A DNA stretch of 64,000 bases from Clostridiales bacterium (GTDB lineage Bacteria; Bacillota; Clostridia; Christensenellales; UBA1242), in NCBI GenBank assembly GCA_015055535.1, contig SVIA01000004.1, positions 1,421-65,420 of the forward strand, read 5' to 3'. The translations under genes were made by a program, and so were the position numbers. Below the pieces are notes generated by a model. The model made no database searches, was not told the origin of the DNA, and saw only the letters and a list, made by a program, of their open reading frames with translations. Below, in pieces: positions 18,183-64,000 of this stretch; position 1 is the first letter of the stretch; each line of letters starts with the position of its first letter.

Positions 18183-18895
18183 TTAGGTTAGATGACTTGC
18201 AAATAGATAATTTAAAAATCTATCAAGATGATACTTTATATAATTTTTCTACTGATGCAGTGCTTTTAGCTAATTTTGTAAATTTTTCTTCTAAAAGTAT
18301 TGTTGTTGATTTTTGTAGCGGAAATGGTGTTGTTGGAATTTTAGCTTCAAGTAAAAATTTTTATAAAAAAATTTATTTAATTGAAATTCAAGAGAATTTA
18401 GCAAAACTAGCTCAAAAAAGTGTTGAATATAACAAATTAGAAAATATTGAAGTCATTAATGATGATTTATTAAATATAAATAATTACATTAAAAATGAAA
18501 GTGTAGATGTTGTTATGGTAAATCCGCCATATAGAAAACAAGATAATCATTTTATAAGCGAAAATGAGCATTTCAACATATGCAATTATGAAATAAAAAT
18601 AAACTTAGAACAAATTATAAATAAAAGCAATAAACTTTTAAAATTTGGTGGAAAACTTTTTATGGTTAATGATATAAATAGACTTGAAGAAACAATTATT
18701 TTATTAAATAAAAATAATTTTAAAGTTAAAACTTTGCAAATTGTTCAGCCAAATATTAATAAAAATGCGAATGTTTTTTTATTACAAGCAACAAAAGGGG
18801 CAAAAAGTGGAATAAAAGTTTTGCCAACACAATTTTTAAATGATGAAAATGGAAATTATATTGTAAAAGTAAAAAAGGGTAAAAATGAACGGTAA
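18179..18895 (+). CDS. SAM-dependent N6-adenine methyltransferase (YabB/TrmN6-like)
   Basis: DFCSGNGVVG SAM motif and NPPY. ATGA overlap with the upstream gene. Confidence 0.7.
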   Translation: MIRLDDLQIDNLKIYQDDTLYNFSTDAVLLANFVNFSSKSIVVDFCSGNGVVGILASSKNFYKKIYLIEIQENLAKLAQKSVEYNKLENIEVINDDLLNINNYIKNESVDVVMVNPPYRKQDNHFISENEHFNICNYEIKINLEQIINKSNKLLKFGGKLFMVNDINRLEETIILLNKNNFKVKTLQIVQPNINKNANVFLLQATKGAKSGIKVLPTQFLNDENGNYIVKVKKGKNER

Positions 18896-44756: not shown

Positions 44757-45022
44757 ATCACGCAAGAGAGATTGTAACCTTACTCTATATATTACATTAA
44801 CAGGTAACTCCTACAAAGCCACCTTATGGCACATAACTAGGTTCGCTTAATGCTGCTTCCGTCAAGACCTGACATGGTTCACGATTAGCTATTGCATAAG
44901 ACTTTATACTCAACGCCCCTTATTAACGCAATAATATAAAATAAAAATTCCGACTTCTCCGTTCGACTCTGCTATAGCGGGTTGCAGATACAGGGCACCG
45001 CTAACTCCCCATCCAGCGTGAT
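44757..45022 (-). ncRNA. ffs: signal recognition particle RNA, long Bacillus type with Alu domain
   Basis: The minus strand reads ...CCATGTCAGGTCTTGACGGAAGCAGCATTAAG... (conserved domain IV) and a 5' GGTGCCCTGT...CAACCCGC Alu-like region. 5'/3' ends pair (ATCACGC/GCGTGAT). Followed by tandem terminators. Confidence 0.85.
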
Positions 45023-51166: not shown

Positions 51167-52510
51167 ATGAAGCTTAAGAATAAAAACGTTTTAGTATATG
51201 GCTTAGGTAAAAGTGGACTTGGTGCAATAAAACTATTAAAAAAGTTAAAATCTAAAATTTTTGTATATGACGATATAAAAGAAAATTTAGAAAATTTTTG
51301 CAATGATAATATTATTAAAGTTTACGAAATTAATGAAGATTTTTTACGAAAAACCGATTTAATTATAGTAAATCCTTGTGTAAGCCAATACTGTGAAAAT
51401 TTAAAACTTGCTAGTTTATTAAAAGTTAAAATGATAAGCGAAATAGAACTAGCATATTTATTTTCAAAAGGCAAAATAATATCGGTTACAGGTAGTAATG
51501 GTAAAAGTACAACAAGTACATTAATATATAACATGTTTAAATTAGCAAACAAAAAAGCTAGTTTGGTTGGGAATATTGGATATAGTTATTCAGAAGAAGT
51601 ATCAAAAAACAAGAAACAAACGTACATTGTAGAAGTTAGTAGCTTTCAACTAGAAACAATAGATAAATATCATTCGAATTGTTCGGCTTTTTTAAATTTT
51701 AGTGAAAATCATTTAGACAGGCATTTTTCGTTAAAAAATTATTTTGAAACCAAATGTAGAATTTTTAATAGAGTAAAAAATAAAGATTTTAAAATTTTAA
51801 ATTACGATGATGAAAAGGTAAAAAATATAAAATTTGATAAAAATTATTATTATTTTAGTTTAAATCAAAAAGTTAAAGGTGCTTATTTTTTTAACGATAA
51901 TATTTATTTTAACAATGGTAAAACCGAAGAATTTATTTTACATAAGTCGAGCATAAAACTAATGGGGGAACATAATATACAAAATGTACTATGTGCAATA
52001 ATTGTAGCTAAACTATATAAAATTAAAAATGAAATTATTAAAAAGGCAGTCGAAAGCTTTTTTGGAATAGAGCATAGAATTGAATTTGTTGAAAATATTA
52101 ACGGGGTAAATTATTATAATGATAGTAAATCTACAACAGTAAAAGCAACATTAACTGCTTTAAATTGTTTTAAAAATAATAGCGTCATTTTAATATTGGG
52201 TGGAAGCGATAAGGGGTTTGATTTTAATGACTTATTTTCAAATATGCCTTCTTACGTTAAATGTATTGTTGCTATTGGTGAAGTAAAAGAAAGAGTTTTA
52301 AACAACGCCAAAGAAAATGGTTTTTACAATGTTTATTTAATAGATGATTTTTTTAATAGTATAAAATTTTCAAAAAATTTAGCCGAAAGTGAAAACTATG
52401 ATACGGTTTTATTAAGCCCAGCTACGGCAAGTTACGATATGTTCACAAGTTTTGAACAACGTGGCGAAACTTTTAAAAATTTAGTAAAGGAATTAAAAGG
52501 TGAAAATTAA
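51167..52510 (+). CDS. murD: UDP-N-acetylmuramoylalanine--D-glutamate ligase
   Basis: GLGKSG N-terminus, GSNGKSTT P-loop, DSKSTT motif. Confidence 0.9.
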   Translation: MKLKNKNVLVYGLGKSGLGAIKLLKKLKSKIFVYDDIKENLENFCNDNIIKVYEINEDFLRKTDLIIVNPCVSQYCENLKLASLLKVKMISEIELAYLFSKGKIISVTGSNGKSTTSTLIYNMFKLANKKASLVGNIGYSYSEEVSKNKKQTYIVEVSSFQLETIDKYHSNCSAFLNFSENHLDRHFSLKNYFETKCRIFNRVKNKDFKILNYDDEKVKNIKFDKNYYYFSLNQKVKGAYFFNDNIYFNNGKTEEFILHKSSIKLMGEHNIQNVLCAIIVAKLYKIKNEIIKKAVESFFGIEHRIEFVENINGVNYYNDSKSTTVKATLTALNCFKNNSVILILGGSDKGFDFNDLFSNMPSYVKCIVAIGEVKERVLNNAKENGFYNVYLIDDFFNSIKFSKNLAESENYDTVLLSPATASYDMFTSFEQRGETFKNLVKELKGEN

Positions 52511-53630
52511 TTTTAAAAAAGTTTTTACAAAAAATAAAGGCACAAATTTTTGGCTACTATCTAGCACCATTTTACTTGTTTTAATTGGACTAGTTTTTGT
52601 TTATAGTGCTAGTTCTTACTCTGCTGAAATTAATTATGGAAACAAATATTATTTTTTAATAAAACAATTAGTCGGTGTAATTTTGGGAACAGGAGCATTA
52701 ATTCTTACTAGTAAAATTGATTATAACATTTATAAAAAATATAAAATTCCAATTTTAGTTGTATCAATTATTTTATTAGCACTGGTTTTTATTCCCGGCT
52801 TAGGAGTGGCGAACTATGGTGCCAGAAGATGGATAAGATTACCCGGTTTTACAATTCAACCAAGTGAAATTGCAAAATTTGGTTTTGTTGTTTTTTGTGC
52901 TGCATATCTATCAAAAAATAAAGATATTGTACATAGCTTTAAAGGGATTTTACCCGTTTTAGCTGCTGGTGGCATTTTATGTGTTTTAATAATGCTTGAA
53001 CCAAATATGAGCATTACAATTTGTGTTGGGTTAACTATGTTTCTAATGCTATTTATTGGTGGCGCTAAAATAAAGCATTTTTTAATTTTAGCTCTTCCAG
53101 TTTTGGCTCTTGGAGTTTTACTTATAATATTAGAACCTTACAGATTACAGCGTTTAATGGCTTTTATTAATCCCTGGGCAAATCCACAAGGTGAGGGTTA
53201 TCAATTAATTCAAAGTTTATATAGTTTATCTTCTGGTGGACTTTTTGGTGTAGGGCTTTTTAATTCAAGACAAAAATATTTATTTTTACCATTTTCAGAA
53301 AGTGATTTTATTTTTTCCATAATAGGTGAAGAAACAGGCTTTTTAGGTTGTTTAACCATAATAGCAATTTTCGGTATAATGATATATCAATGTATTAAAA
53401 TCGCCCACAACGCAAAAGATCGTTTTGGTTGTTATCTAGTAACAGGCATAGTTTCTGTTATTGCAACTCAAGTGTTAGTAAACATTGCAGTAGTTACTGG
53501 CTCAATTCCACCAACCGGAGTTCCGCTTCCGTTTATAAGTGCAGGTTCAACAAGTTTGCTTGTCTTTATGTCTGCGATAGGTGTCGTGTTGAATGTAGAT
53601 AGACAGAGTAGGAATAAAGTGATTCAGTAG
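52500..53630 (+). CDS. ftsW: peptidoglycan glycosyltransferase FtsW/SpoVE (SEDS family)
   Basis: 10-TM SEDS protein. QPSEIAKF, ESDFIFSIIGEE, PPTGVPLPFISAGSTS motifs. GTG start overlapping the murD end. Confidence 0.9.
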   Translation: MKINFKKVFTKNKGTNFWLLSSTILLVLIGLVFVYSASSYSAEINYGNKYYFLIKQLVGVILGTGALILTSKIDYNIYKKYKIPILVVSIILLALVFIPGLGVANYGARRWIRLPGFTIQPSEIAKFGFVVFCAAYLSKNKDIVHSFKGILPVLAAGGILCVLIMLEPNMSITICVGLTMFLMLFIGGAKIKHFLILALPVLALGVLLIILEPYRLQRLMAFINPWANPQGEGYQLIQSLYSLSSGGLFGVGLFNSRQKYLFLPFSESDFIFSIIGEETGFLGCLTIIAIFGIMIYQCIKIAHNAKDRFGCYLVTGIVSVIATQVLVNIAVVTGSIPPTGVPLPFISAGSTSLLVFMSAIGVVLNVDRQSRNKVIQ

Positions 53631-53647
53631 TGAATCACGAAAGATTC

Positions 53648-53696
53648 AAAAATGTATACTTATACAGTATGCATTTTTTTGTTTATGTGTTACACT
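53648..53696 (+). promoter_or_regulatory. ftsW terminator hairpin plus cassette promoter module (copy 0)
   Basis: aaaaatgtatac..gtatgcattttttt hairpin/T-run, then TGTGTTACACT extended -10-like box. TAGGAGA SD before 53716. Confidence 0.55.
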
Positions 53697-53715
53697 AAAA
53701 TAGTAGGAGAATAAT

Positions 53716-54678
53716 ATGAAACTAAAAGAAATATTAGATTGTAAGTTGGGTGTTGCAATTAATACAGAAAATATAAAAACACACAAAGATTTAATAATTA
53801 ATGAATTTAATAGTGTTACTTTTGAAAATGCGTTAAAATTTAACTATAGAATAAAAGAAGATTATTCTTATGATTTTTCCGATGCGGATAAACTTTATAA
53901 ATTTGCAATGGACAATAATTTGGCTGTTAGGGGGCATTGTTTGGTTTGGCATAACGGATTTCCAAAACATATATTAGGTAATTTAAGCAAAAATCAACTG
54001 CTTAATGAAATTAGAAAATACGCAAAAGAAGTTAAGAAAAGATATCCTAAAATTTATGCTTGGGATGTTGTAAATGAAATATGTTCAATGGCGCAAAAGG
54101 GATTAAGAAAAACACCATTTTATGAAATAATTGGAGAAGATTATATTGAGGAGTGTTTTAAAATTGCAAGAGAAGAGCTTGGGCAAGATGTAGAATTATA
54201 TTATAACGAAGAAGATGAATGGTTCCCTGAAAAAATAGAAGAGATTATAAAAATTGCTAAAAAATTAAAAGAAAAGAATGTTCCAATAGATGGGATAGGT
54301 TTGCAGTGTCATATTTCTTGTTTTGAAGACATTTCTCAATATAGATATTTATTAGAAAATATTAGACAATTAGGACTAAAATGCCAAATAACAGAAATGG
54401 AAGTATCGGTATACGATTGGACCGATGGGAATTATAAAGAATGTCCAAAGGAAATTTTGGATAAGCAAGCAGAGGTTTATTTAACAATGTTTAAGTTGTT
54501 TAATGAATATAAAGATATTATTAATTCAATAACTTTTTGGTCGGTAAGTGATGGTTGTACTTGGCGTGATATGTGGCCGGTTGAAAATAGAAAAGATTGG
54601 CCAACACTATTTAATGAAAATGATAAACCTAAAGAAGTATACAATAAAGTAGTTGACCAATTAAATAAAAATTCATAG
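53716..54678 (+). CDS. glycoside hydrolase family 10 (xylanase-like), no signal peptide
   Basis: WDVVNE (acid/base) and ITEMEVS (nucleophile region) GH10 signatures. The stop TAG lies inside the junction motif. Confidence 0.8.
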   Translation: MKLKEILDCKLGVAINTENIKTHKDLIINEFNSVTFENALKFNYRIKEDYSYDFSDADKLYKFAMDNNLAVRGHCLVWHNGFPKHILGNLSKNQLLNEIRKYAKEVKKRYPKIYAWDVVNEICSMAQKGLRKTPFYEIIGEDYIEECFKIAREELGQDVELYYNEEDEWFPEKIEEIIKIAKKLKEKNVPIDGIGLQCHISCFEDISQYRYLLENIRQLGLKCQITEMEVSVYDWTDGNYKECPKEILDKQAEVYLTMFKLFNEYKDIINSITFWSVSDGCTWRDMWPVENRKDWPTLFNENDKPKEVYNKVVDQLNKNS

Positions 54679-54827
54679 TGCAATAACTGATGTTAAGGGG
54701 TTCAATACCGCCAACAGGTTTACCGTTGCCTTTCATTAGTGCTGGCTCAACTTCGCTGTTGGTTTTTATGAGTGCGATAGGGGTTGTGCTGAATGTCGAC
54801 AGGCAATCAAGAAAAGGTAGACTTTAA
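54674..54827 (+). repeat. displaced ftsW 3'-end copy R1
   Basis: Junction CATAGTGCAATAACTGATGTTAAGG, then a frame encoding GSIPPTGLPLPFISAGSTSLLVFMSAIGVVLNVDRQSRKGRL*. Confidence 0.9.
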
Positions 54828-54841
54828 TTTTTTATAATAAG

Positions 54842-54894
54842 TGTATACAAAGTGTAAACATTTTGTATACATTTTTTATTTTTTGTGTTATATT
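54842..54894 (+). promoter_or_regulatory. terminator/promoter module (copy 1)
   Basis: tgtatacaaa/tttgtataca 10-bp hairpin plus T-run, then TGTGTTATATT. Confidence 0.5.
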
Positions 54895-54903
54895 AAATTT
54901 AAT

Positions 54904-55341
54904 ATGAAACCTAATTATGAATTAATAGAAGCAAAAAATGAAGATTTTGAATTTATAAAAAATGCAAAGATCATAACGATTTTTGATTATGCAAAAAATA
55001 TTTCAGATGAAGAAAGAGAAGATATTCTATCTTATGTTAATAGATTTACAGAAAAATTTTTGAAAGACTATAAAATTATTTCAAAAAACAATATAAAATG
55101 TGGAGTATTTTTAATTAGAGATTATGAAGATGGTGTATTACTTGATGAAATTTATTTATTGCCAGAGTACCGAAATTTAGGGATTGGTTCTAATATAATA
55201 AAAAGCGAAATAGTAAAGCATAGTAAAGTATATTTATGGGTGTATAAAGAAAATTTAAAGGCTATAAATTTATATAAAAAACTGGGTTTTGTTGTTTTTA
55301 AAGATGAAGCTGAAAGATATTTAATGCTTTATAGTAATTAA
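54904..55341 (+). CDS. GNAT family N-acetyltransferase
   Basis: LLPEYRNLGIGSNIIK acetyl-CoA motif A. The ATG at 54904 has no SD and lies ~9 nt after the -10 box, so it may be leaderless. The GTG at 54841 lies in the hairpin and is unlikely. Confidence 0.75.
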   Translation: MKPNYELIEAKNEDFEFIKNAKIITIFDYAKNISDEEREDILSYVNRFTEKFLKDYKIISKNNIKCGVFLIRDYEDGVLLDEIYLLPEYRNLGIGSNIIKSEIVKHSKVYLWVYKENLKAINLYKKLGFVVFKDEAERYLMLYSN

Positions 55342-55426
55342 TATAACGGCTGATTGTAAAAGTTTAAATAACTTAAATTTAAAACTAAAATAACACTTTT
55401 TAATGTAAATGTGTGCAAGTTTAAAT

Positions 55427-55461
55427 AATGTGTATACATTTTAAATTTTTTGTGTTATAAT
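55427..55461 (+). promoter_or_regulatory. terminator/promoter module without ftsW tail (copy 2)
   Basis: aatgtgtatacatt, T-run, TGTGTTATAAT. CAGGAG SD before 55485. Confidence 0.5.
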
Positions 55462-55484
55462 AAAAAAACAGGAGAAAATTTTTT

Positions 55485-56024
55485 ATGTTTGAAACAGAAA
55501 GGTTAATTATTAGAAGATTTATGCCAAGTGACGCTATTGATATTTATGAAGCGTGCAACGATTATGAAATGGTAAAAACCACACTAGGTTTGCCTTGGCC
55601 TTATACAAAAGAAATGGCAGAAGGCTGGGTTGGCAAAGTGGCACAAAGGGAAGAAGAAGGTTCTTCTTACGAATATGCAATTTGTTTAAAAGATAATCCA
55701 GATAAGATTGTTGGTTGCATTGCGTTAATGGATTTTAATAACAAAGCAAGAAGGGCAGAAATGGGTTATTGGGTTGCAAGAAAATATTGGAGAAATGGTA
55801 TTGCAACAGAAGCTGCAAAAGCTATGCTTAACTTTGGGTTTGAAAAACTTAACCTACATAGCATTATAGCTAGATATTTCGACATTAATCCTGCTAGTGG
55901 TAGGGTTATGGAAAAAGCCGGAATGAGATATGTTGGGACAATTAGAGATCACGAATTTAGATTTGATAAATTCTTTAACGTTGGCTACTATGAAATGTTA
56001 GAAACAGATGAAAGGGAGCAATAA
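55485..56024 (+). CDS. GNAT family N-acetyltransferase (RimJ/RimL-like)
   Basis: ETERLIIRRF start, YWVARKYWRNGIATEAAKAML motif A. Confidence 0.85.
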   Translation: MFETERLIIRRFMPSDAIDIYEACNDYEMVKTTLGLPWPYTKEMAEGWVGKVAQREEEGSSYEYAICLKDNPDKIVGCIALMDFNNKARRAEMGYWVARKYWRNGIATEAAKAMLNFGFEKLNLHSIIARYFDINPASGRVMEKAGMRYVGTIRDHEFRFDKFFNVGYYEMLETDEREQ

Positions 56025-56038
56025 ATTTGCTCTTTTTT
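56016..56038 (+). terminator. cassette-end terminator (stop codon in the loop)
   Basis: gagcaa-taaa-tttgctc plus T6. Near-identical copy at 58489-58511. Confidence 0.6.
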
Positions 56039-56050
56039 AATGCAAAAAAC

Positions 56051-56205
56051 TTATAGTGCAATAACTCGTGATAAGGGGCTCTATTCCGCCAACCGGAGTT
56101 CCACTACCATTTATCTCTGCGGGTAGCACAAGTTTGCTAGTCTTTATGTCAGCGATAGGAGTTGTATTGAATGTTGATAGACAGAGTAGGAAAGCAAAAA
56201 TTTAA
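56051..56205 (+). repeat. displaced ftsW 3'-end copy R2
   Basis: TTATAGTGCAATAACTCGTGATAAGG junction, then GSIPPTGVPLPFISAGSTSLLVFMSAIGVVLNVDRQSRKAKI*. Confidence 0.9.
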
Positions 56206-56217
56206 GTTTTTTAATGT

Positions 56218-56251
56218 AAATGTATACATTTTTTTGTTTGTGTGATATACT
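56218..56251 (+). promoter_or_regulatory. terminator/promoter module (copy 3)
   Basis: Perfect palindrome aaatgtatacattt, T-run, TGTGATATACT. TAGGAGA SD. Confidence 0.5.
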
Positions 56252-56267
56252 AAAAAGGTAGGAGAAA

Positions 56268-56924
56268 ATGCAAATGAAAAAATTTTATTCAAGTATAATT
56301 AACCTAAAAGATAAAGAGTTGAATTGGAAAAATCAAAATTATTGTTATGCTACTACAATTTTTGTGGTGATAATGATTTTTGTATTAAGTAATATTCTGT
56401 CATCTAAAATATACGAAATTCTTATCACTAATAGTTTTTGGAATTGTTTTTTAATGTCTTTATATCCTAATTTTAGCATGATAATGTTTGGGGCTGTTAG
56501 TTTGTACTTGGAACGTAAATATGGTTCTTTAAATTATTTACTTGTAGTTTTAATGTGTTTGCCGATTGCTAATATTGTTAATTATTCATTTGAATTTTTG
56601 CAAGGTTCTAATTTAGGCTGGGCTGGTTCAATGGGATTTTCTTGCATGGCATTTTTAATGACTGGAATTTTTGTTATAGATTTTATTTTCAGTTTTAAAC
56701 ATCATTTAAAAGATAAATTGAGTTTAATTTTTCCAATTATTATAATCATAATTTGTATAATATTTATGTGTATCAATTTGCCAAATGATATAACACCAAA
56801 TTTTCACTTTGATTTTTTTGGTAGATTGGTGGAAAATTGCGGACATTATGGGCCTTTCATATTTGGGGTTATTATGAGATTATTGGCATTTTTATTTTGT
56901 AAAGATAATAATAAAATTTTATAG
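56268..56924 (+). CDS. polytopic membrane protein, rhomboid-like
   Basis: 6 TM helices. ERKYGS, GWAGSMGFS and GHYGPFIFG segments resemble rhomboid TM2/TM4/TM6 motifs, but the match is weak. The stop TAG is inside the junction motif. Confidence 0.55.
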   Translation: MQMKKFYSSIINLKDKELNWKNQNYCYATTIFVVIMIFVLSNILSSKIYEILITNSFWNCFLMSLYPNFSMIMFGAVSLYLERKYGSLNYLLVVLMCLPIANIVNYSFEFLQGSNLGWAGSMGFSCMAFLMTGIFVIDFIFSFKHHLKDKLSLIFPIIIIIICIIFMCINLPNDITPNFHFDFFGRLVENCGHYGPFIFGVIMRLLAFLFCKDNNKIL

Positions 56925-57076
56925 TGCAATAACTCGTGATAAGGGGCTCTATTCCGCCAACCGGAGTTCCACTACCATTTATCTCTGCGGGTAGCACAAG
57001 TTTGCTAGTCTTTATGTCAGCGATAGGGGTTGTTCTCAACATAGATAAACAGAGTAGGAATAATAAGATTCAGTAG
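56919..57076 (+). repeat. displaced ftsW 3'-end copy R3
   Basis: The first 109 nt are identical to R2. The tail ...VVLNIDKQSRNNKIQ* and the downstream TGAATCA.. resemble the resident ftsW end. Confidence 0.9.
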
Positions 57077-57094
57077 TGAATCATAAAGAAACAA

Positions 57095-57139
57095 AATGTA
57101 TGCGATTTCGTATACATTTTTTATTTTTTGTAGTATACT
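57095..57139 (+). promoter_or_regulatory. terminator/promoter module (copy 4)
   Basis: atgtatgcga-tt-tcgtatacat hairpin, T-run, TAGTATACT. AGAGGG SD. Confidence 0.5.
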
Positions 57140-57156
57140 CTTAGTTAGAGGGTAAA

Positions 57157-57678
57157 ATGAAACATTTAGAATTTGTTAAACTGAATAAAGATAATTTTGA
57201 AAAAGTGTTGACCATTAAACATTTGGCGTTTCCTGAATCAAATTCAGATGATGATTATGTAAAGTATTTTGCCAATGAAGTTAAAGCTAACTATTATTTA
57301 ATAGAGTTTAACGGAGATCCTTGTGCTACTATTGGCTGGTATGACTTTGATGGACAAAAAAGAAATGCCTTTGTTGGTTGGTTTGCGGTTTTGCCAGAGT
57401 ATCAAAATAAAAAGATTGGAACGCGAGCATTAAATTATATAGTTGATGAAGTTAAGTCTTTGGGGTATCAATATTTAAGGGTGTATACAGATAAAGTTGT
57501 AAATTATATCTCAACCAAGTTATATGATAAAATCTTTGACATAAAAGAGAACTATACATACCCTGATGAAATTGGCAAAACAAATAATTTTATTGTTTAT
57601 ACAAAATTCTTAACCGACAAACAAGAAAGATGGAACAACAAACCTTTGAATGAAGATGATAATTATGATTTAGATTAG
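57157..57678 (+). CDS. GNAT family N-acetyltransferase
   Basis: FAVLPEYQNKKIGTRALNYIV motif A. The stop TAG is inside the junction motif. Confidence 0.75.
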   Translation: MKHLEFVKLNKDNFEKVLTIKHLAFPESNSDDDYVKYFANEVKANYYLIEFNGDPCATIGWYDFDGQKRNAFVGWFAVLPEYQNKKIGTRALNYIVDEVKSLGYQYLRVYTDKVVNYISTKLYDKIFDIKENYTYPDEIGKTNNFIVYTKFLTDKQERWNNKPLNEDDNYDLD

Positions 57679-57827
57679 TACAATAACTCGTGTTAAGGGG
57701 TTCAATACCGCCAACAGGTTTGCCTTTGCCGTTCATCTCTGCCGGCTCAACTTCACTGTTAGTTTTTATGAGTGCGATAGGGGTTGTGCTTAATGTAGAT
57801 AGGTAGAGTAGAAAGAGTAAAATATAG
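57676..57827 (+). repeat. displaced ftsW 3'-end copy R4 (with internal CAG to TAG change)
   Basis: TAGTACAATAACTCGTGTTAAGG junction. GSIPPTGLPLPFISAGSTSLLVFMSAIGVVLNVDR, then TAG where other copies have Q. Same subfamily as R1. Confidence 0.9.
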
Positions 57828-57871
57828 TTTTGTATATTGCAATTATTTTAAAAATATGTTATCATAAAAAT

Positions 57872-58498
57872 ATGAAAAATTTATTTATTTTATTGTTTCC
57901 ACAAAAAGAATATGTTGCTGGATATTTTACCGAAGAAGATATATCATTATTTAATGATTGTATTAGAAAAAGATATATTGAAAAAGGATATGACTTTTGC
58001 ATTGCTACCTTTAAAAATTCAAATATGGGTATAGTTTCTTTAAAACCTCATATTATTGTTAATGCCAATATAACTTTTGGAGAGTCAAGTCCATATACCT
58101 GCAAAAATTGGAAATATGCAGATTTTAAAAATCTAGCAGAGAAAGTCGATGTTGATAAATATGCTAATATTGCTGTTGGTGGTTTTCATTGTTATGATTG
58201 TGTTGAAAAATTTGCTAATGAAATTTATTTAACTAATCCTAATGTAATAATCGATACAGATTTGACTGAATTGTTTAGAAATGCATATCGATATGAAGAA
58301 AGTTTTAATATAGAAAAATTTAATCTAAATTTAAAATTAAAAAGAGTTTATAGTGATGGATATATTCCATTAGAAACATTAGAGAGACTACAAGAAAAAT
58401 TTCAAAAACCGATTTGGGGTATCTCTTCTAAAGTTTTAAAGTTTTTAGAAAAAATAATTCAAAAAGAGAAAGAAAACAATATTACTAAAGAGCAATAA
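57872..58498 (+). CDS. hypothetical protein
   Basis: ORF from MKNLFILLF. TTGCAA..TATCAT promoter-like boxes upstream. No motif recognised. Confidence 0.55.
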   Translation: MKNLFILLFPQKEYVAGYFTEEDISLFNDCIRKRYIEKGYDFCIATFKNSNMGIVSLKPHIIVNANITFGESSPYTCKNWKYADFKNLAEKVDVDKYANIAVGGFHCYDCVEKFANEIYLTNPNVIIDTDLTELFRNAYRYEESFNIEKFNLNLKLKRVYSDGYIPLETLERLQEKFQKPIWGISSKVLKFLEKIIQKEKENNITKEQ

Positions 58499-58511
58499 TT
58501 TGCTCTTTTTT
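58489..58511 (+). terminator. cassette-end terminator (second copy)
   Basis: agagcaa-taa-tttgctct plus T6. The ORF also ends ..EQ*, as at 56016. Confidence 0.6.
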
Positions 58512-58524
58512 GTTATTTAATTTT

Positions 58525-58615
58525 ATAATACAATAACTGATTTTAAGAGGTTCAATTCCTCCAACTGGCTTGCCACTACCATTTATCTCTGCCGGCTCAA
58601 CTTCGCTATTATTTT
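58525..58615 (+). repeat. truncated displaced ftsW 3'-end copy R5
   Basis: TATAATACAATAACTGATTTTAAGA junction, then GSIPPTGLPLPFISAGSTSLL. Similarity is lost after that. Confidence 0.8.
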
Positions 58616-58786
58616 TTAGCGAGGCGCAAGAATTTTTTTGTAGTGTTATTGTATTGTTTTAAAAATGGGGACGGGGATTGAAAAGAACAATAAGTGTAAA
58701 AGTTTACAAATTAATATTGACATAAATAGGAAAATTTGATATTATATGAATGAATTAAAATAACATTTTTTGGAAGGAAATATATT

Positions 58787-59344
58787 ATGAGTTATGAAAA
58801 AATTACTGGTTATTTTGTTGACATAAGTGAAAATGATCACAAAGATTTGATTAGTACAAATGATGAATATGCAGAAATTAGTTCTATTATTAAGGATTAT
58901 GAAACTTGTTTATGGTTGGAAAGAAAATATTTTTCAATACAAAAGTGGGATAATGAGAATGATCCAGAATTTAGAGAAGCTTATTATATTTATGACCCTA
59001 ATTTGGCAAAAGAAAATAAAGTATTTTTTGAAAAATGGCCAAAGAAAAGAGAAAAACTTATTGCAAAATTAAATGAGCATAAATATTTATTTAAGACTGC
59101 AAAAAATCGTGACGAAGATATTCTTAAGCACGGTGATATAATATTTAAAGAACTTAAATCGTATTATGAAAAAGATGACAGTTTTTGTAAACTTAAAAAC
59201 GATTTAGAAGAAAAAAGTGTAAAGAGTAATAATGGGGATATTTTATACGATTATATAGTTAAACTTTATGCTAGAAGAAAAAAAATGGTTAAAGAATATT
59301 TGTCTGAAAAGAAAGAATCATTAGAAGGCGAGTTGTCGCTATAA
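58787..59344 (+). CDS. hypothetical protein
   Basis: TTGACA-17nt-TATTAT promoter at ~58717-58745. GGAAGGA SD. 185-codon ORF. Confidence 0.55.
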   Translation: MSYEKITGYFVDISENDHKDLISTNDEYAEISSIIKDYETCLWLERKYFSIQKWDNENDPEFREAYYIYDPNLAKENKVFFEKWPKKREKLIAKLNEHKYLFKTAKNRDEDILKHGDIIFKELKSYYEKDDSFCKLKNDLEEKSVKSNNGDILYDYIVKLYARRKKMVKEYLSEKKESLEGELSL

Positions 59345-59366
59345 ACTAAAATTAGATATTTTAATG

Positions 59367-59422
59367 AAAATGTATACAATTGTAATCAAAATGTATACAT
59401 TTTTTTGTTTGTGTGTTATTAT
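59367..59422 (+). promoter_or_regulatory. terminator/promoter module without ftsW tail (copy 5)
   Basis: Two aaaatgtataca copies, T-run, TGTGTGTTATTAT. A second TGATATAAT box lies at 59481-59489. Confidence 0.45.
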
Positions 59423-59510
59423 AAATTTATAATGAAACTGTTCATTTAGTGTCAATAGGCTTTGAAAAATGTTTTTGGTGTGATATAATATACGCATAGG
59501 AGAATTATAG

Positions 59511-60206
59511 ATGAAAGAACTTGTTACAGATAGATTTGTAATAAATTTTCAAGAAGGTCTAGAAGGTTTTATCAAAAATTCATTAAAAATTGTTGAACAA
59601 CAAATGCCTTTATTGGAAAAATTGTTTCTATCTGAAGTTACAGAAGTTGAAAAACTTAAGGCTTCTTTTTTTATAACAAGAAAAGATTTTGTTGAGTATA
59701 TTAAATCAATTTCAAATGGAAGAACACCACCAGAATGGGCAACTGGTTGCTTTTATAATGGTGAAATTCAAACATTATTAAATATTAATAACGAAGAAGA
59801 TATGAAATATAAAATTTATACATTAACGCACGAAATGGTGCATTTATATATTCAAAAACTTGTTTATGAAAAATATAAAATAGATAGAATAAGATGGTTT
59901 GATGAGAGCTATGCGTCATATATTGGTGGGCACATAAAAAACATGACAAAACAAAAATTACAAACAATATGTGAACAATTAAAAACTTTTAGTCAATTTG
60001 ATTTGAATATTCTTGATGATATTAAAAAAGTAAGAACAACAGAATATGATGGATATAATATGTTTTTGGTGATAGGAAAGTATTTATTTGAAAATAATTT
60101 AGATAAAGATTATATTGAATTATTAAAAATTAATCCAGAAGAAATAAGAAAAGAAGGGAAAAGTATTTTAAAAAAAGCTATAGAGTATGTATTAAAAAGC
60201 TTATAG
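59511..60206 (+). CDS. putative zinc metallopeptidase (HExxH...E)
   Basis: LTHEMVHLY with a downstream WFDESYASY (gluzincin-like spacing). TAGGAGA SD. The stop TAG lies in the degenerate junction TTATAGTGTAATAA. Confidence 0.55.
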   Translation: MKELVTDRFVINFQEGLEGFIKNSLKIVEQQMPLLEKLFLSEVTEVEKLKASFFITRKDFVEYIKSISNGRTPPEWATGCFYNGEIQTLLNINNEEDMKYKIYTLTHEMVHLYIQKLVYEKYKIDRIRWFDESYASYIGGHIKNMTKQKLQTICEQLKTFSQFDLNILDDIKKVRTTEYDGYNMFLVIGKYLFENNLDKDYIELLKINPEEIRKEGKSILKKAIEYVLKSL

Positions 60207-60310
60207 TGTAATAAATCATGGTAAATTACTCCATTTCGCTCCTGGATTATTTTGGCCATTAAAAAAATGTCAAAAAGTTGAATTAGTAAACTAGCATAAA
60301 GGCAATAATA

Positions 60311-60427
60311 AATGGGTTATTTATATACAACTTGTTTTATCATAAGTTTATATTTGATATGTATTATAATATTGGTTTTTATGAAATGTTGGCGACAATT
60401 AAAATAAATAATAATTTAAAAGTATAG
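60311..60427 (+). pseudogene. 3' fragment of a RimJ/RimL-type GNAT gene
   Basis: Frame reads ..FYHKFIFDMYYNIGFYEMLA.., alignable to the C-terminus HEFRFDKFFNVGYYEMLE of 55485..56024. No N-terminal part is present. Confidence 0.35.
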
Positions 60428-60557
60428 GTTTAATATATAAATTACATTATTATAATTTTTATTTGTTAAAGTAATTAAAAATTTATATATTGACATTGAG
60501 AATAAAATATAGTATAATGCTTAAAATTAATAAATTAATTTATTTAAGGAGATAAAA

Positions 60558-61232
60558 ATGAAAGAGTTTTATGGATTGTTTGGAGAGGAATTTACATTAA
60601 AAATGGTTAATCAAATTAACACATCTTCTCATTATGTTAAAGATGTAAAATTACAATCTCTTCCAGCAGATTATGATGAACCAAATGAAAAATTTGTACT
60701 AGACGAACCAGCAAAAAAAAGAGAATATTTGTCGCCTAGAGCAAAAACTATTGATGGTACTATATATCATAATGGTTATCCTTGTTATATTGGAAATTAT
60801 AAGTATCGCTCAGCAATATATAAATCAATGGGTGGTTTAATCATACTTCCAGTTTATAGTCTAGAAAATGATGATTATCTTTGTGCATATTTAAGAAATA
60901 TAAAAGGTTTTGTTATACTAAATAAGGACTTGGAAATTATTTATAAAAATCTTAATACATCATATGAATATTTTAGCAACAAACAAGAATTTTATGATTT
61001 CCTTCATGATTATGGCCCAACCGCATTACAATTTGTGAATCCAGAAGATTTTAATCTTGTAACTCAAAATGCTTTAAGAAGAGTTTACTCTTTAAGAGAA
61101 CAAACACTAAAAGATAATGAAGTTGATTCAGTTGAAATATTAAAAGATAAAGAATTATTTAATAAAGCATTTAATATTTTGAAAAAAGAATATCAAAAAA
61201 TTCAAGAAAAAACTGATAGCAAGGAATGTTAA
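60558..61232 (+). CDS. hypothetical protein
   Basis: TTGACA-17nt-TATAAT promoter at 60491-60519. AAGGAG SD. 224-codon ORF. Confidence 0.55.
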   Translation: MKEFYGLFGEEFTLKMVNQINTSSHYVKDVKLQSLPADYDEPNEKFVLDEPAKKREYLSPRAKTIDGTIYHNGYPCYIGNYKYRSAIYKSMGGLIILPVYSLENDDYLCAYLRNIKGFVILNKDLEIIYKNLNTSYEYFSNKQEFYDFLHDYGPTALQFVNPEDFNLVTQNALRRVYSLREQTLKDNEVDSVEILKDKELFNKAFNILKKEYQKIQEKTDSKEC

Positions 61233-61336
61233 TGCTTAAATTTTAAGTTTAATAAAAAAGTAAAATTTAATTAGTATTGGTATTAACATAATTAAGTTAA
61301 TAATAGTTTAATAATTAATATATAATTATAATAAAA

Positions 61337-61364
61337 TAACACGGGAATTTCCGTGTTATTTTTA
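61337..61364. terminator. hairpin terminator
   Basis: ataacacgg-gaattt-ccgtgttat plus T-run. Confidence 0.6.
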
Positions 61365-61799
61365 TAAAAAGGTTTTTAATGAGTCAACAAATTCTTCTTC
61401 ATAGCTTACTACATCTTTAGCAATAGACAATAATTCTTTGTTTTTGGAGTTAAATTCATTCATTGCTTTTAGGGTATCTGTTATTCCCATTGTTGTACCC
61501 TGAATAAGCATTTCGGCAAGTTTTGGTGAATCATTGTTAATTAAAGTTTTTGTTTTTATGCTTACATATGACATGCCTTTTAAAATGGGATTTATATCCT
61601 TTAATTCAAAACTCATAGTTTTGGCAAATTGCTCAACTTTTTCAACCGTGTTAAGATAATATTTATTTTGTTTTCTTAAAAGTTCAGCTAGTTTAATATT
61701 TTCAATTTTTTCAATAATACAATCTATTGCAAAGCTTGCCATTCTAACATTTTCATAAACTCTGTTTGCTAGTTCAATTTCATTATTTTTTTGTTCCAT
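61362..61799 (-). CDS. hypothetical helical protein
   Basis: AAAGGAG SD on the minus strand. 145-codon ORF. Confidence 0.55.
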   Translation of the reverse strand: MEQKNNEIELANRVYENVRMASFAIDCIIEKIENIKLAELLRKQNKYYLNTVEKVEQFAKTMSFELKDINPILKGMSYVSIKTKTLINNDSPKLAEMLIQGTTMGITDTLKAMNEFNSKNKELLSIAKDVVSYEEEFVDSLKTFL

Positions 61800-62009
61800 A
61801 TTTACTCCTTTAATTTATTTTTTACCTAAATCAAATTTTTATGTATATATTTTGTTGTTAAAATAACTTCGTTTAGTATTAAATAGAGTTTATGTTTTAA
61901 ACTTAATAGTTTTAAAAGTGAAATATATGTCGTTGAATAAGCATATAAAAAGTATTACATATTAAAAAAAAGTTGTATTAACATACAACTTTTAAATTTT
62001 ATTTTTAGT

Positions 62010-62363
62010 TTATTTTTGTTCTAATTCTTCTTTATAACAAACAAGGTGTTTTCTTAAATTGTTTTCAACTTCAACCAAATTTGGGTTTTCATGAACAACT
62101 TCTAATAATTTTTTAAAATTATTTTTATCAATAGTTTTTCCATATCTATCATCGCATAAATCAAGCGAAACAATTAATTCTGCAATTTGTTTAATTGTTC
62201 TTTCATCATCTGATTTAAGAGTATTAATTGCTTTTGTTACTTTTCTTAAAGATGAATTTCTATAAAATTTACTTGTTTCCCAAAATTGTTTTAACTCTGC
62301 TTTCCAGCAAGCCAATATTTCTGTTAATGATTTATTGTCGTTTTCGTCATTAAAATCTCTCAT
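62010..62363 (-). CDS. hypothetical protein
   Basis: TAGGAGAAAAAC SD region. 117-codon ORF. Confidence 0.5.
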   Translation of the reverse strand: MRDFNDENDNKSLTEILACWKAELKQFWETSKFYRNSSLRKVTKAINTLKSDDERTIKQIAELIVSLDLCDDRYGKTIDKNNFKKLLEVVHENPNLVEVENNLRKHLVCYKEELEQK

Positions 62364-62480
62364 GTGTTTTTCTCCTATAAAAATATGTTAACACTTATAG
62401 TCCATTTTGTCAAGATGCAAATTAATTTTTTAATTATAATAATTATAATTTATAGTTAAAAACATATAAAAAAGCATATG

Positions 62481-62813
62481 TTACATATGCTTTTTTCTAT
62501 ATTTATTCAATGTTGTTAGCCACAATAAAAGTTCTTGATGTTTTTCTATTATCTCTTTGTTGGTATTGTTTTTAATTACATCTTTAGTGTGCTCAATTGC
62601 TTCCATTAGTGTCATATATCCTTCAAGAAGGGGATTTTCTTTGTTTATTCCAATTTTACCCATTTCGTAGTCGCTCAATTCTATCAGCCAGTCTAAAATT
62701 TGTTGATGCTGGTTCGCACATTCCAAACAAGAAAAAGTGCTTTCATTTTGTTTTTTAATAAGTAGTTTTAATTGATAAATTTCGTTTTTCAAATTTTTAT
62801 TATTAATTTTCAT
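62481..62813 (-). CDS. hypothetical protein, probably leaderless
   Basis: The ATG at 62813 is preceded by TGTTATAAT, 6 nt upstream, with no SD. The TTG at 62831 is unlikely. Confidence 0.5.
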   Translation of the reverse strand: MKINNKNLKNEIYQLKLLIKKQNESTFSCLECANQHQQILDWLIELSDYEMGKIGINKENPLLEGYMTLMEAIEHTKDVIKNNTNKEIIEKHQELLLWLTTLNKYRKKHM

Positions 62814-62912
62814 GCTCTTATTATAACACAAACTTTATTTACTTGTCTAATTAAAAAGATGTTTCCGTTGATTTTACGCCTCTTTTTTGATATACTAACA
62901 CAAGGGGTAATT

Positions 62913-63155
62913 ATGAATATTGGTATAGATTTAGACGGCGTACTTTTTGACAGCTAAAGCGTATATGAATCATATGCTGGGTTTTACGATTTATATATTA
63001 ACGGAAAAGGAATTGTTAATAAAGATGAAATTTGAATGCAAAAAAATATTCTTGGTCAAAAATGTGGATTACTTTTGGGCAAGAAAAATATAGTTACGAT
63101 GAAAATTTTTTAAAAATTTCAAACTATATTAAAAATAATAAAATTAAAAGATCTT
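62913..63155 (+). pseudogene. disrupted HAD-family 5'(3')-deoxyribonucleotidase-like gene
   Basis: MNIGIDLDGVLFDS (HAD DxD motif), then TAA at 62955. Coding-like sequence continues in other frames (..YSWSKMWITFGQEKYSYDENF..). Confidence 0.5.
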
Positions 63156-63205
63156 GATTTTTATATAATCCTGTAGTATAATTAAGAATAAAATAAGGAG
63201 AAAAT

Positions 63206-64000
63206 ATGTTAACACTTCAACATTCATTAATAACACTATTTGCTTTAAATGGAAATGAAAAACAATTTAAAGAAGAATTGCCATATGTTTTATTGCCAGA
63301 CGCTATAAGAAAATACTTAACAAATAGAAAATATGGGCATTTTGAATTATCGCACGATAAAAAAGATGTTTCTTGGCTTAAATATCCAATAGATATTAAA
63401 AACTTATCGAGCGAAATATTTGATATGGCGGAAAAACATTTGGTATCTGATTTGAGCCCTTGTGTTTTGGGTGAAATAACTCAAGTTGAAAGCTTTGAAA
63501 AACACAATTCTCATTTGCCAATTGTTTATTTTGCGGGAGTAAAAAAACATTTAATTCAAGATAGACTTAATGATGTGTTTATAAGAAAAATAATTGATTG
63601 TAGCAAAATGTATGAAGATATATTTGTTTTTAAAGGCAAAGAATATACTGGAACAGAAATTCGAAAAATAATTAGCGAAATAGAAAATTATGGCTTTTAT
63701 ATTTTAAGTTCTATGTTGTATGATGCTTTTAATATTACAACAAACCAAGAATGGTTTGATAAAAATGTAAAACCAGTTTTGGATAAGGCTTATGGAGAAG
63801 AATTATCTAATGCTACATATCGTTTTATGAAAATACCAGAAGACATTAATGAAAAAATTACTAATCATGACTTTTCGAACTTAGATAAAAATATAATTGA
63901 TATAAATATTTATTTAAATATGTATAAATTAGTAGTAGAGAGTATGAAACAGGTTGATGTTGAGAGAATAAAAAAAGAAAAAACCAATAATGAGAATATA
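63206..64000 (+). CDS. hypothetical protein (3' end beyond window)
   Basis: AAGGAG SD. ATG at 63206. Open frame runs to the window edge (265 codons). Not in the ORF track because no stop is present. Confidence 0.55.
   Translation, partial: MLTLQHSLITLFALNGNEKQFKEELPYVLLPDAIRKYLTNRKYGHFELSHDKKDVSWLKYPIDIKNLSSEIFDMAEKHLVSDLSPCVLGEITQVESFEKHNSHLPIVYFAGVKKHLIQDRLNDVFIRKIIDCSKMYEDIFVFKGKEYTGTEIRKIISEIENYGFYILSSMLYDAFNITTNQEWFDKNVKPVLDKAYGEELSNATYRFMKIPEDINEKITNHDFSNLDKNIIDINIYLNMYKLVVESMKQVDVERIKKEKTNNENI

Follow-up and report, generated by a model that had tools for sequence, protein, structure and literature searches.

The ftsW locus

The DNA analysed here, referred to as the window, is a stretch of 64,000 nt from a Clostridiales bacterium of the Christensenellales and belongs to the parent contig Ga0318466_10008251 (Joint Genome Institute (JGI) sample 3300031555, 74.7 kb). 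The genes murE, mraY and murD of the division and cell wall (dcw) cluster lead into ftsW, and at the 3' end of ftsW at least six gene cassettes follow, separated by displaced copies of the ftsW tail. Small mobile gene cassettes have built up here into an accretion array, with the 3' end of the essential ftsW gene as their attachment site. Each cassette is built in the order ftsW tail (~130 nt, ~43 codons plus the stop), hairpin, extended -10 box, Shine-Dalgarno (SD) sequence, one or two cargo genes, and a junction motif. The coordinates are collected in Table 1; related loci are referred to by numbers with the prefix L.

Displaced tails and the junction motif

The last ~130 nt of ftsW (53499-53630) are repeated on the plus strand from positions 54699, 56077, 56945, 57699 and 58549, with an additional decayed copy at 60200-60262. 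Repeat finding from exact seeds yields six copies of ~155 nt (family D1) and six junctions (family D2), and the MAFFT alignment takes in all tail copies. In tblastn, the tail peptide matches at 53493-53615, 54699-54812, 56071-56190, 56939-57061, 57699-57812 and 58549-58626, always on the plus strand, and the same six sites are recovered by an nhmmer profile of the junction and tail. The four methods agree on the five downstream recurrences, in one orientation, claimed in a preliminary description of this DNA.

Every displaced copy is headed by TTTATARTRCAATAACTSRTGWTAAGG, a stop-rich junction motif of 25–30 nt, as had also been claimed. The junction pattern is found seven times in the window (0.25 matches expected), six times inside the array. 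The genuine ftsW gene is without the junction motif and fits the junction and tail profile only from position ~44–50, that is from the GSIPP codons onward. The profile aligner places native ftsW sequence (..ATTGCAGTAGTGACAGG.. or ..AATATTGCAGTAGTGACAGGC.., encoding NIAVVTG) on the junction with a gap of 4–7 nt. Most simply, the junction can be read as a diverged copy of the ftsW codons NIAVVT, which immediately precede the tail. Through a small insertion and a few substitutions that have become fixed, this copy is out of frame and has acquired stops in all three reading frames. Its two haplotypes, ..AGTGCAATAACTCGTG.. and ..AATACAATAACTGATG.., recombine freely. The information content of the displaced tails at codon positions 1, 2 and 3 is 1.36, 1.58 and 0.61 bits, respectively. 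The junction (mean 1.37 bits) is non-coding, yet it is conserved to the same degree as codon positions 1 and 2.

Two other descriptions of the junction were rejected. It is not a remnant of the VFMSAIG region, because the aligner puts the native NIAVVTG sequence on it, and it is not an attC-like, dif-like or uptake sequence, since it shows no dyad symmetry and the motif is not genome-wide. Single-strand folding of the junction and tail is not attC-like when compared with shuffled sequences (z = -0.20 for the plus and +0.54 for the minus strand; the comparison was made by folding, without an attC covariance model).

An ATG, GTG or TTG codon stands in frame right after the in-frame stop in 28 of 35 displaced tails (at 54690, 56068, 56936 and 57690 in the junctions of the window), and ~26 of the 35 are open to the normal stop, which results in ORFs (open reading frames) of ~45 aa starting with M-L/I-R/T-GSIPPTG... 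A protein search with one such ORF returned 92 clusters of 35–78-aa fragments in public data, and gene callers and PGAP annotate some displaced tails as tiny 'FtsW/RodA/SpoVE family' proteins.

Along the window the tails show a gradient of decay: tail 4 has acquired a stop codon, tail 5 an insert, and the distal copy is strongly decayed. Tail 5, first described as truncated, is not simply so: it is intact to ..SLLF, where a small hairpin insert, also seen in other genomes, breaks into it. The gradient suggests a polarity of the array, in which the newest cassette adjoins ftsW.

Cassette backbone and cargo

The hairpin that follows the tail is built on TGTATACA and is an AT-rich terminator, probably a bidirectional one. 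An optional GAGCAA..TTGCTC terminator lies between the cargo and the junction, and the hairpin GAGCAATAAATTTGCTC with its T-run, found 3' of cargo 2b, is the terminator common to many cassettes. The terminator motif GTATACATTTTTT has seven matches in the window, compared with 1.37 expected, and six of them are inside the array. Terminator-like hairpins are found at 54839, 57093 and 58487. Predicted TG-extended -10 promoter-like sites stand upstream of cargo at 54866, 55433, 56223, 57837, 58717, 59394 and 59462, and a site without the TG extension at 57111. Since promoter-like matches overall are not enriched in this AT-rich DNA, the evidence for promoters is the regular position of the sites and not their number.

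In four of the six units the cargo ORF runs into the junction motif and uses its TAG as stop codon; cargo 2b and cargo 5, in the remaining two, end earlier, within the conserved GAGCAA..TTGCTC terminator. Two intervals carry two genes each, one with cargo 2a and 2b and the other with the two ORFs of the last canonical cassette. In both, the genes are separated by an internal module (55382-55464 and 59343-59425, 77% identical) of terminator and promoter that retains ~12 nt of the tail end (AAACTAAAAT..), which suggests either a propagated tail-less type of module or recurrent deletion of the junction and tail. Two types of tail end, ..IQ* (with a palindrome across the stop) and ..KI*, each go with a particular terminator variant, both in the window and in L076, so that the tail and the promoter module downstream of it travel together.

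The cargo identities given in the preliminary description (a glycoside hydrolase of family 10, a GNAT, a rhomboid-like membrane protein, a second GNAT and a hypothetical protein) are borne out by Pfam. The ORFs at 57872-58498 and 58787-59344 have no Pfam match; the product of ORF 59511-60206 contains an HEMVH motif, has only a weak, sub-threshold Pfam match, and is 71% identical in amino acid sequence to that of the first cassette of L011. The same description spoke of promoter-bearing, single-gene cassettes ending at 60230. Most units do hold a single gene, the exceptions being the two intervals mentioned above, and for the promoters it is their regular placement, not the overall count, that agrees with the data. 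The end point has to be moved, as the variable region runs on to ~67.0 kb of the parent contig. The canonical cassettes occupy its first 6.6 kb; the YtxC-like protein gene, which usually follows ftsW in this lineage, is reached only at ~67.0 kb, and thus the whole variable region is ~13 kb long. Synteny with the relatives is picked up again only at ~67,034. The ~6.7 kb between 60263 and ~67.0 kb hold lineage-specific genes on both strands, several without a Pfam match; a CitMHS transporter and a radical-SAM protein are among the genes distal to the canonical cassettes.

Table 1. Features of the ftsW array in the window, with the positions of element E in related loci (window coordinates unless a locus is named).
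Feature	Position	Strand	Basis
ftsW, 376 aa, last gene of the mraY-murD-ftsW run	52500..53630	+	ORF, Pfam FTSW_RODA_SPOVE, homologues
Functional ftsW tail, GSIPPTGVPLPF..DRQSRNKVIQ*, 'universal' cassette type, unlike that of the closest relatives	53499..53630	+
Palindrome spanning the ftsW stop codon, part of cassette 1 head	53619-53638	+
Cassette 1 head: hairpin with T-run, extended -10, SD	53631..53715	+	repeat families D3/D4
Extended -10 box TGTGTTACACT of cassette 1 head	53686-53696	+
Cargo 1: glycoside hydrolase family 10; stop is the TAG in the junction motif	53716..54678	+	Pfam
Junction motif 1, TTCATAGTGCAATAACTGATGTTAAGG	54672..54698	+	repeat family D2
Displaced tail 1, peptide intact	54699..54827	+	tblastn, nhmmer
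Terminator hairpin (54839-54874, with T-run) and TG-extended -10 promoter-like site (54866-54894)	54828..54903	+
Cargo 2a: GNAT acetyltransferase	54904..55341	+	Pfam
Internal tail-less terminator/promoter module with ~12 nt of tail end; homologous to 59343-59425	55382..55484	+	repeat family D5
Cargo 2b: GNAT (Acetyltransf_3), followed by hairpin GAGCAATAAATTTGCTC with T-run	55485..56024	+	Pfam
Junction motif 2	56050..56076	+
Displaced tail 2, intact; 91% identical to tail 3	56077..56205	+
Hairpin with T-run, extended -10 (56223-56251), SD	56206..56267	+
Cargo 3: rhomboid-like membrane protein; stop is the TAG of junction 3	56268..56924	+	Pfam
Junction motif 3	56917..56944	+
Displaced tail 3, intact; ..NNKIQ* end type as in the functional tail	56945..57076	+
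Terminator hairpin (57093-57120) and promoter-like site (57111-57139)	57077..57156	+
Cargo 4: GNAT; stop is the TAG of junction 4	57157..57678	+	Pfam
Junction motif 4	57674..57698	+
Displaced tail 4, in-frame TAG at 57804-57806	57699..57827	+
Promoter-like site (57837-57865), cargo 5 (57872-58498, no Pfam match), terminator (58487-58508)	57828..58515	+
Junction motif 5	58522..58548	+
Displaced tail 5: intact to ..SLLF, small hairpin insert (~58616-58650), decayed beyond	58549..58690	+
Last canonical cassette: promoter (58717-58745), ORF 58787-59344, tail-less module 59343-59489, ORF 59511-60206	58717..60206	+
Junction motif 6 and strongly decayed tail (~60227); distal end of the recognisable array	60200..60262	+
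Variable non-canonical genes without junction or tail modules	60263..64000	both
Element E	L077 11644-11759, 12498-12602, 14370-14476, 15256-15362
Element E	L073 11813-11922, 12812-12921
Element E	L068 12392-12503; L072 8359-8472; L010 8893-9008; L076 18121-18232
Element E	L094 233-337	-

Occurrence in related genomes

A scan with one genome per species found at least 464 relatives and gave 80 loci from uncultured Christensenellales and other Clostridia, all gut metagenome-assembled genomes (MAGs) of humans, ruminants, deer and termites. The related genomes were compared as slices of ~20 kb, and 83 non-redundant loci were counted. Displaced tails are present in 26 of the 83, or about one third of the species, with one to nine tails each and with differing cargo. 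They invariably lie downstream of ftsW and on its strand, and the array is confined to the gap between ftsW and murA (or its equivalent). A tail and the junction that follows it are a median of 758 nt apart. In ~14 loci the site is empty, and ftsW is followed, after an ordinary intergenic region of 30–300 nt, by murA-ftsQ-ftsA-ftsZ; in other loci the gap downstream of ftsW measures 0.7–7.5 kb. A clean single cassette, ftsW-APH-tail-murA, is found in at least 12 contigs. Further arrays were recovered by looking up clusters of displaced-tail ORFs. A metagenome scan with the junction motif returned 25 stretches, of which four were genuine. The two junction matches in a scan of viral contigs were both due to chance in GC-rich DNA, so there is no sign of a phage carrier.

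The cassette order of the window is found again in the assembly of sample 3300032167, and a 1.4-kb contig of sample 3300029705 carries a fragment of it. An assembly artefact, named in the preliminary description as one way for its reading to fail, is in this manner contradicted by independent assemblies (3300031555 and 3300032167, with the fragment in 3300029705); turnover among relatives, the other point raised there, shows in sites that are empty, sites that hold one cassette, and arrays with as many as nine displaced tails and differing cargo. Look-ups by MurD, by the ORFs of the window and by displaced-tail ORFs returned the same arrangement in every sample, without polymorphism at the strain level. 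It is hardly credible that the array is a mis-assembly of mixed strains or a single ancient local duplication inherited vertically. The sequences do all come from metagenome assembly, and the arrays are places where contigs often end, but the copies differ by 10–40%, which makes assembly unambiguous, the same order recurs in independent samples, array number and cargo differ among species, common cargo occupies differing positions, and the universal tail described below cuts across FtsW divergence.

In respect to the cargo, cassette 5 of the window is the first cassette of L010 (86% nucleotide identity), and the Acetyltransf_3 GNAT (GNAT family 7) occupies differing positions in the arrays of the window, L010, L018 and L040. 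Pairs of homologous cargo that could show which of the tails moves with the cargo are few and diverged (65–89%). Among 138 ORFs of the gaps, GNATs are the commonest family (17 proteins), and APH phosphotransferases, BspA-type leucine-rich repeat (LRR) proteins, HD proteins and AsnA are also frequent.

Several gap-associated genes were observed besides. In an otherwise ~91% identical region, L037 (2636-2920) and L051 (11095-13885) differ by the absence or presence of a 742-aa BspA-type LRR gene and an 81-aa ORF. The difference runs from just past the promoter and SD to the start of the same decayed displaced tail, and is thus an indel of cargo only. In L059 (3747-6962, minus strand) a polymorphic-toxin protein with a PT-HINT domain is encoded ~1 kb past the last detected tail. 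Further ORFs in or beside the gaps, at L042 8843-10519, L008 11215-12510 and L025 4422-5564, include genes for BspA-type LRR surface proteins, a CotH kinase and, in L025, a locus without any detected displaced tail, a protein bearing a dockerin.

Origin of the replacement tails

The peptide GSIPPTGLPLPFISAGSTSLLVFMSAIGVVLNVDRQSR is found, identical, in the functional position of array-bearing species whose FtsW transmembrane segments differ widely, and species without detected arrays have mostly lineage-specific tails. This universal peptide is present at 95% identity or more in 12 of 24 array-bearing loci and in 2 of 54 others (Mann-Whitney p=2e-6). The exceptions are L040, where the sequence stops 540 nt past ftsW and a match to GNAT family 7 lies directly downstream, and L070, where it stops 140 nt past ftsW and is too short to show an array. 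The universal tail in the functional position is horizontally shared. FtsW of the window has the universal type; its closest relatives end in ..STALVVFMASIGILINIHKQS.

The displaced tails vary mainly at third codon positions, and hence they diverged under selection on the peptide and not as pseudogenes in place. Within arrays the tails are 59–84% identical, compared with a between-species background of 66 ± 5.5%. The copy adjacent to ftsW is not the closest to the functional tail: in the window, the functional tail is 68% identical to the first displaced tail and 82% to the second. With no ladder of this kind, successive duplication of the resident tail is ruled out. It seems that every cassette brought in a tail of its own, and one tail peptide has apparently been selected to work with many divergent FtsW bodies. 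The replacement tails of the preliminary description are in agreement with the universal peptide, the codon-position pattern, the missing ladder and the terminator type linked to each tail.

The position of element E (see below), the truncated tails and the PTGV of the window had raised the idea of a crossover within the tail, at PLP|FIS. At the nucleotide level, however, the whole tail of the window from GSIPP on, PTGV included, is closer to displaced tails 2 and 3 than to the tails of the relatives, which speaks somewhat against such a mid-tail crossover in the window. Other loci look chimeric at points nearer the 3' end.

Proposed mechanism and alternative explanations

The anatomy of the array matches integration of a circle by a single crossover of the Campbell type, with a left tail copy that is complete and functional and a right copy that is without the 5' part. 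The explanation we favour, with moderate confidence, is that cassettes in circular form are inserted into the ftsW tail by a site-specific recombinase that is encoded in trans. A cassette would be transiently circular, with its junction and tail contiguous, and the ~300-nt module of junction, tail, terminator and promoter would serve as attP. The circle would recombine with the resident ftsW tail, 3' of the frameshifting insert of the junction; the incoming tail would become the new working C-terminus of FtsW, and the earlier tail would be displaced behind the new cargo and would then decay. Since the tail of every insertion has to work in an essential protein, selection would keep one tail peptide fit for many hosts. 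Strand exchange would be the task of a dedicated recombinase encoded elsewhere in the genome, as for the ccr-less elements of the staphylococcal cassette chromosome (SCC) type or for cis-mobilizable elements (CIMEs). Gene conversion between neighbouring tails after insertion, and small secondary insertions, may blur the pattern.

Three features favour a recombinase acting in trans: the tails of growing arrays (59–84% identity) are too divergent for efficient RecA recombination, the non-coding junction is under strong constraint, and the cassettes have a uniform orientation and a common ~300-nt backbone, which is about as long as a complex attP. Integrase, resolvase, transposase and Cas1 domains are absent from the Pfam annotation of essentially every gene of the 74.7-kb contig, which extends the preliminary statement that no recombinase is encoded in the 64 kb. 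Recombinase domains were likewise found neither in the 20 largest gap ORFs of other species nor in the 25 families best represented in the 138 gap ORFs (families of a single protein lie outside that summary). No protein family is common to most arrays, and therefore a recombinase is not part of the arrays.

Several observations weigh against integration by a dedicated recombinase at a single site. With no recombinase, excised circle or strain-level insertion polymorphism found, mobility is inferred from the comparison between species only. The gradient of decay is not clean in L076 and L077, where tails split by element E adjoin ftsW; the claim that each event pushes the older tail downstream is thus suggested by the window but not uniformly by its relatives. 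The breakpoints within the tails vary in position. The second and third displaced tails of the window are identical as far as ..SAIG and divergent after it, the L011 tail is host-like as far as GVIL, the two L109 copies are 94% identical up to ATGAGTGCAAT, and PLP|FIS is the point at which truncated tails and the 110-nt element are concentrated. One crossover site accounts for such scattered breakpoints no better, and perhaps less well, than homologous recombination or gene conversion. In the single-cassette loci L020, L021, L028, L054 and L060 both tails carry the same lineage-specific residues, which the model does not predict unless later conversion is added.

These points lead to host homologous recombination, the strongest of the alternatives, which we nevertheless regard as rather unlikely. 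Here a circle looped out between two tails, or DNA taken up from outside, would enter in Campbell style through the ~130-nt homology, gene conversion would follow, and the junction would be conserved only to stop translation into the tail. Besides the variable breakpoints and the missing recombinase, the near-identical tail pairs of single cassettes (97% in L028, 95% in L020 and 94% in L109, host-specific residues included) agree with it, and so does the non-canonical 4-kb insert of L020, whose 105-nt tail duplicate (95–98%) is the product expected from a single crossover with a circle that carries an internal gene fragment. However, the tails of the large arrays, at 59–84% identity and with few long identical runs, are a poor substrate for RecA, yet these arrays grew most. 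The first entry into an empty site of another species would require a circle within the recipient and would have only ~130 nt at ~75% identity to work with. The 25–30-nt junction is conserved at nearly every position, beyond what a stop codon needs, and almost all cassettes are co-oriented and share the one ~300-nt backbone.

A further proposal concerns the function of the displaced tails and is compatible with either integration mechanism. They could be small genes under selection at their present place, for FtsW C-terminal peptides of ~45 aa that act, for example, as a modulator of FtsW or an addiction device. The start codons after the stop (28 of 35 tails), the ~26 of 35 tails open to the normal stop, the extreme conservation of the peptide despite synonymous divergence and the 92 clusters of 35–78-aa ORFs from gene callers would be in line with such genes. 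On the other hand, the start has no SD sequence before it, stops, frameshifts or insertions disrupt many copies (four of five in L077, and the fourth to sixth copies of the window), the orthologous displaced tails of L037 and L051 are decayed, and the GTG may be the ancestral Val codon of ..VVTG. On balance we consider small genes improbable.

Still less probable, and largely refuted, is the view of the tails as long target-site duplications, generated by an integrase or transposase through staggered cuts at the tail borders and fill-in, as for the repeats of CRISPR arrays in Cas1-Cas2 integration. The apparent polar addition in the window, the degenerate distal repeat and the near-identical duplicates with host-specific features in L020, L028 and L109 are compatible with it, but the newest pair of tails should then be the most similar one, and among the loci compared this is found only in L020, L028 and L109, where conversion is an alternative, and not in arrays (neither in the window, with the values given above, nor in L076, which shows no ladder). 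In addition, the differences are mostly synonymous, unlike neutral divergence in place, the functional tails are foreign and of the universal type, and the displaced copies start with a junction motif that the resident gene does not have.

Small inserts in related genomes and other features of the window

Some displaced tails of the relatives are interrupted by element E, of ~110–125 nt, with the structure GCGTCAAAACnCTCGCTT - hairpin - CTCGGTTTTTCCTTTTCCCC - hairpin - GGGGGCCCC. The hairpins show compensatory changes at five pairs, and the element has no Rfam match. Within displaced tails it always stands between the codons PLP and AGSTS (Table 1); it is absent from the window. An inverted copy lies at the very end of functional ftsW in L109 (8871-8968 and 10129-10228; also in L110-L117) and in L065 (1606-1794). 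FtsW with this terminal inverted E ends in ..DRQHKDNLGPHKANALKGKGKNRAIG*, and a partial replacement tail follows beyond E, from (F)MSAIG to ..RKSKI* in L109 and only from ..VDRQSR in L065. Both tail copies of L109 carry E. In L136 the boundaries at 1540-1596 and 3317-3376 are halves, composed of the junction and the first ~30 nt of the tail (to ..PTGLPL), beyond which lies unrelated sequence or a stub of element E. This break coincides with the insertion site of E in other loci.

In L008 an element E (17115-17230) is located 6 kb from ftsW, between an intact tRNA-Leu(CAG) gene (17250-17336, minus strand) and a tRNA 3' duplicate. The duplicate comprises 69 nt of the 3' part of tRNA-Leu and spacer, the footprint of a miniature integrative element, and a tRNA-Pro gene lies at 16903-16978. 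The motif ATAGGCAGA is common to tRNA-Leu and the ftsW tail, near the insertion points of E. The occurrence of E at tRNA-Leu hints at an integrase-type activity in these genomes.

The small hairpin insert of tail 5 in the window (58616-58650) is ~35 nt long, AGCGAAGCGCAAGAATTTTGCAAAAATTCTTTTGTAG, and is placed between ..LLVF and SAIG..; it is also found in L010 (~9040-9075), and the same insert is indicated in L021 (~12180-12215) by the interrupted tail peptide (..VVF*RSARKCSFLLSAIG..). In L076 (~18310-18450) an insert of ~140 nt with the terminal inverted repeats CCACAGGG..CCCTGTGG separates DRQS from RKSKI* in a displaced tail. The insert of L020 (11068-15133) contains a 1223-aa ORF with a HopA1 effector domain and is flanked by the 105-nt tail duplicate; it is without the junction motif and the cassette promoter, and FtsW reads through into a long foreign C-terminal extension.

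Elsewhere in the window, the bacterial large signal recognition particle (SRP) RNA (166 bits) is encoded upstream of the dcw cluster (44758-45021, minus strand), and a Lactamase_B protein that also matches the Anti-Pycsar Apyc1 family at 20579-21685 (plus strand). The SRP RNA was the only match of the Rfam search of the window at gathering thresholds, and no tRNA genes were found there. An Rfam search by E-value over the L077 array gave sub-threshold chance matches only.

Implications and comparison with known systems

If the mechanism is confirmed, an uncultured and abundant order of gut Clostridia would possess a cassette system with the logic of an integron, assembled from different parts. 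The cargo is rich in GNATs and includes two APH-type phosphotransferases, besides surface LRR proteins and toxin domains, all of them classes relevant to resistance and niche adaptation and of possible clinical interest. A mobile element would repeatedly rewrite the C-terminus of an essential, conserved membrane protein. Both the recombination activity and the ~300-nt site would be candidate tools for engineering genomes at a target that is conserved among these Clostridia. The many 35–78-aa 'FtsW/RodA/SpoVE family' ORFs in the public annotation of MAGs are displaced tails. More tentatively, it is possible that the array represents a second, independent gene-capture platform of the integron type in gut Firmicutes, in which cassettes bring a universal FtsW C-terminus and which may involve a new family of trans-acting enzymes or a non-classical activity, and possibly micro-proteins.

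A full-text literature search found no published description of cassettes or integration at ftsW. The array resembles integrons in its many small, co-oriented and mostly single-gene cassettes of ~0.5–1.5 kb, which vary among relatives, in cargo ORFs that often end within the recombination-site motif, in GNAT-rich cargo that includes phosphotransferases, and in apparent proximal addition with distal decay; a circular intermediate is inferred here as well. In contrast to integrons, there is no intI beside the array or on the contig, the repeat is a coding-derived direct repeat with a junction instead of an imperfect-palindrome attC, each cassette has its own predicted promoter and terminators and does not depend on the common promoter Pc, and the attachment site is intragenic and must be repaired by the cassette. 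Without intI, attC or a common promoter, the array is not an integron.

The SCC elements of staphylococci enter the 3' end of a housekeeping gene (rlmH/orfX) with the reading frame kept, form tandem arrays with direct repeats of the target end, and include recombinase-less members (pseudo-SCC) that are mobilised in trans. All of these are points of likeness. However, SCC units are multi-gene, ~3–60 kb long, with repeats of ~15–18 bp, whereas the ftsW units measure ~1 kb with a repeat of ~155 nt. At least one unit of an SCC array carries the serine recombinases ccrAB or ccrC; the ftsW units carry no recombinase, and no Resolvase or Recombinase domains were found in the array ORFs scanned or in the 25 commonest families of the 138 gap ORFs. 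In the absence of ccr genes and of large elements, the array is not SCC.

Likeness is also seen with the accretion of CIMEs, integrative and conjugative elements (ICEs) and integrative and mobilizable elements (IMEs) at fda in Streptococcus thermophilus and at rpsI, rpmG, guaA and tRNA genes. There, too, tandem att-flanked units have no recombination module, the element supplies a replacement 3' end, and the integrase acts in trans; each ftsW unit is flanked by tails and none encodes a recombinase, as in CIMEs. CIMEs, however, are remnants of large elements, single or paired, whereas the ftsW array has a standard backbone of ~300 nt and many single genes, and the ~20-kb slices of the relatives showed no ICE or IME whose integrase is specific for ftsW, nor did viral contigs show a true junction. 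By this comparison the ftsW array gives the impression of a dedicated cassette system rather than of decay products.

In genomic islands at tRNA and tmRNA genes, including the tycheposons of Prochlorococcus, displaced 3' fragments also mark successive insertions, the cargo is made up of small sets of adaptive genes, and some satellites are without an integrase, but the ftsW target is protein-coding, its units are ten times smaller and no tyrosine recombinase is present at the locus. The minimal mobile elements of Neisseria, the model behind the proposal of homologous recombination, share the fixed site between conserved genes (here ftsW and murA), the variable genes and the lack of a recombinase. 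They have no repeated target fragments, junction motif, standard backbone or arrays; as these element-specific sites are present in the ftsW units, the latter are not minimal mobile elements. CRISPR arrays and casposons show a comparable repeat-spacer-like layout, with apparent leader-proximal addition and a degenerate distal repeat, and casposons also use gene 3' ends (tRNA, EF-2). In the case of ftsW, in contrast, the repeats are not copies of the neighbouring one, the 'spacers' are genes, and there is no cas1 or casposase.

In its functions, the array can be compared with integrons on one side (arrays of small cassettes, classes of cargo) and with SCC elements and CIMEs on the other (insertion at the 3' end of a housekeeping gene with its repair, and units without a recombinase). 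Judged from its sequence organisation, it appears to be a site-specific cassette accretion of a previously undescribed form.

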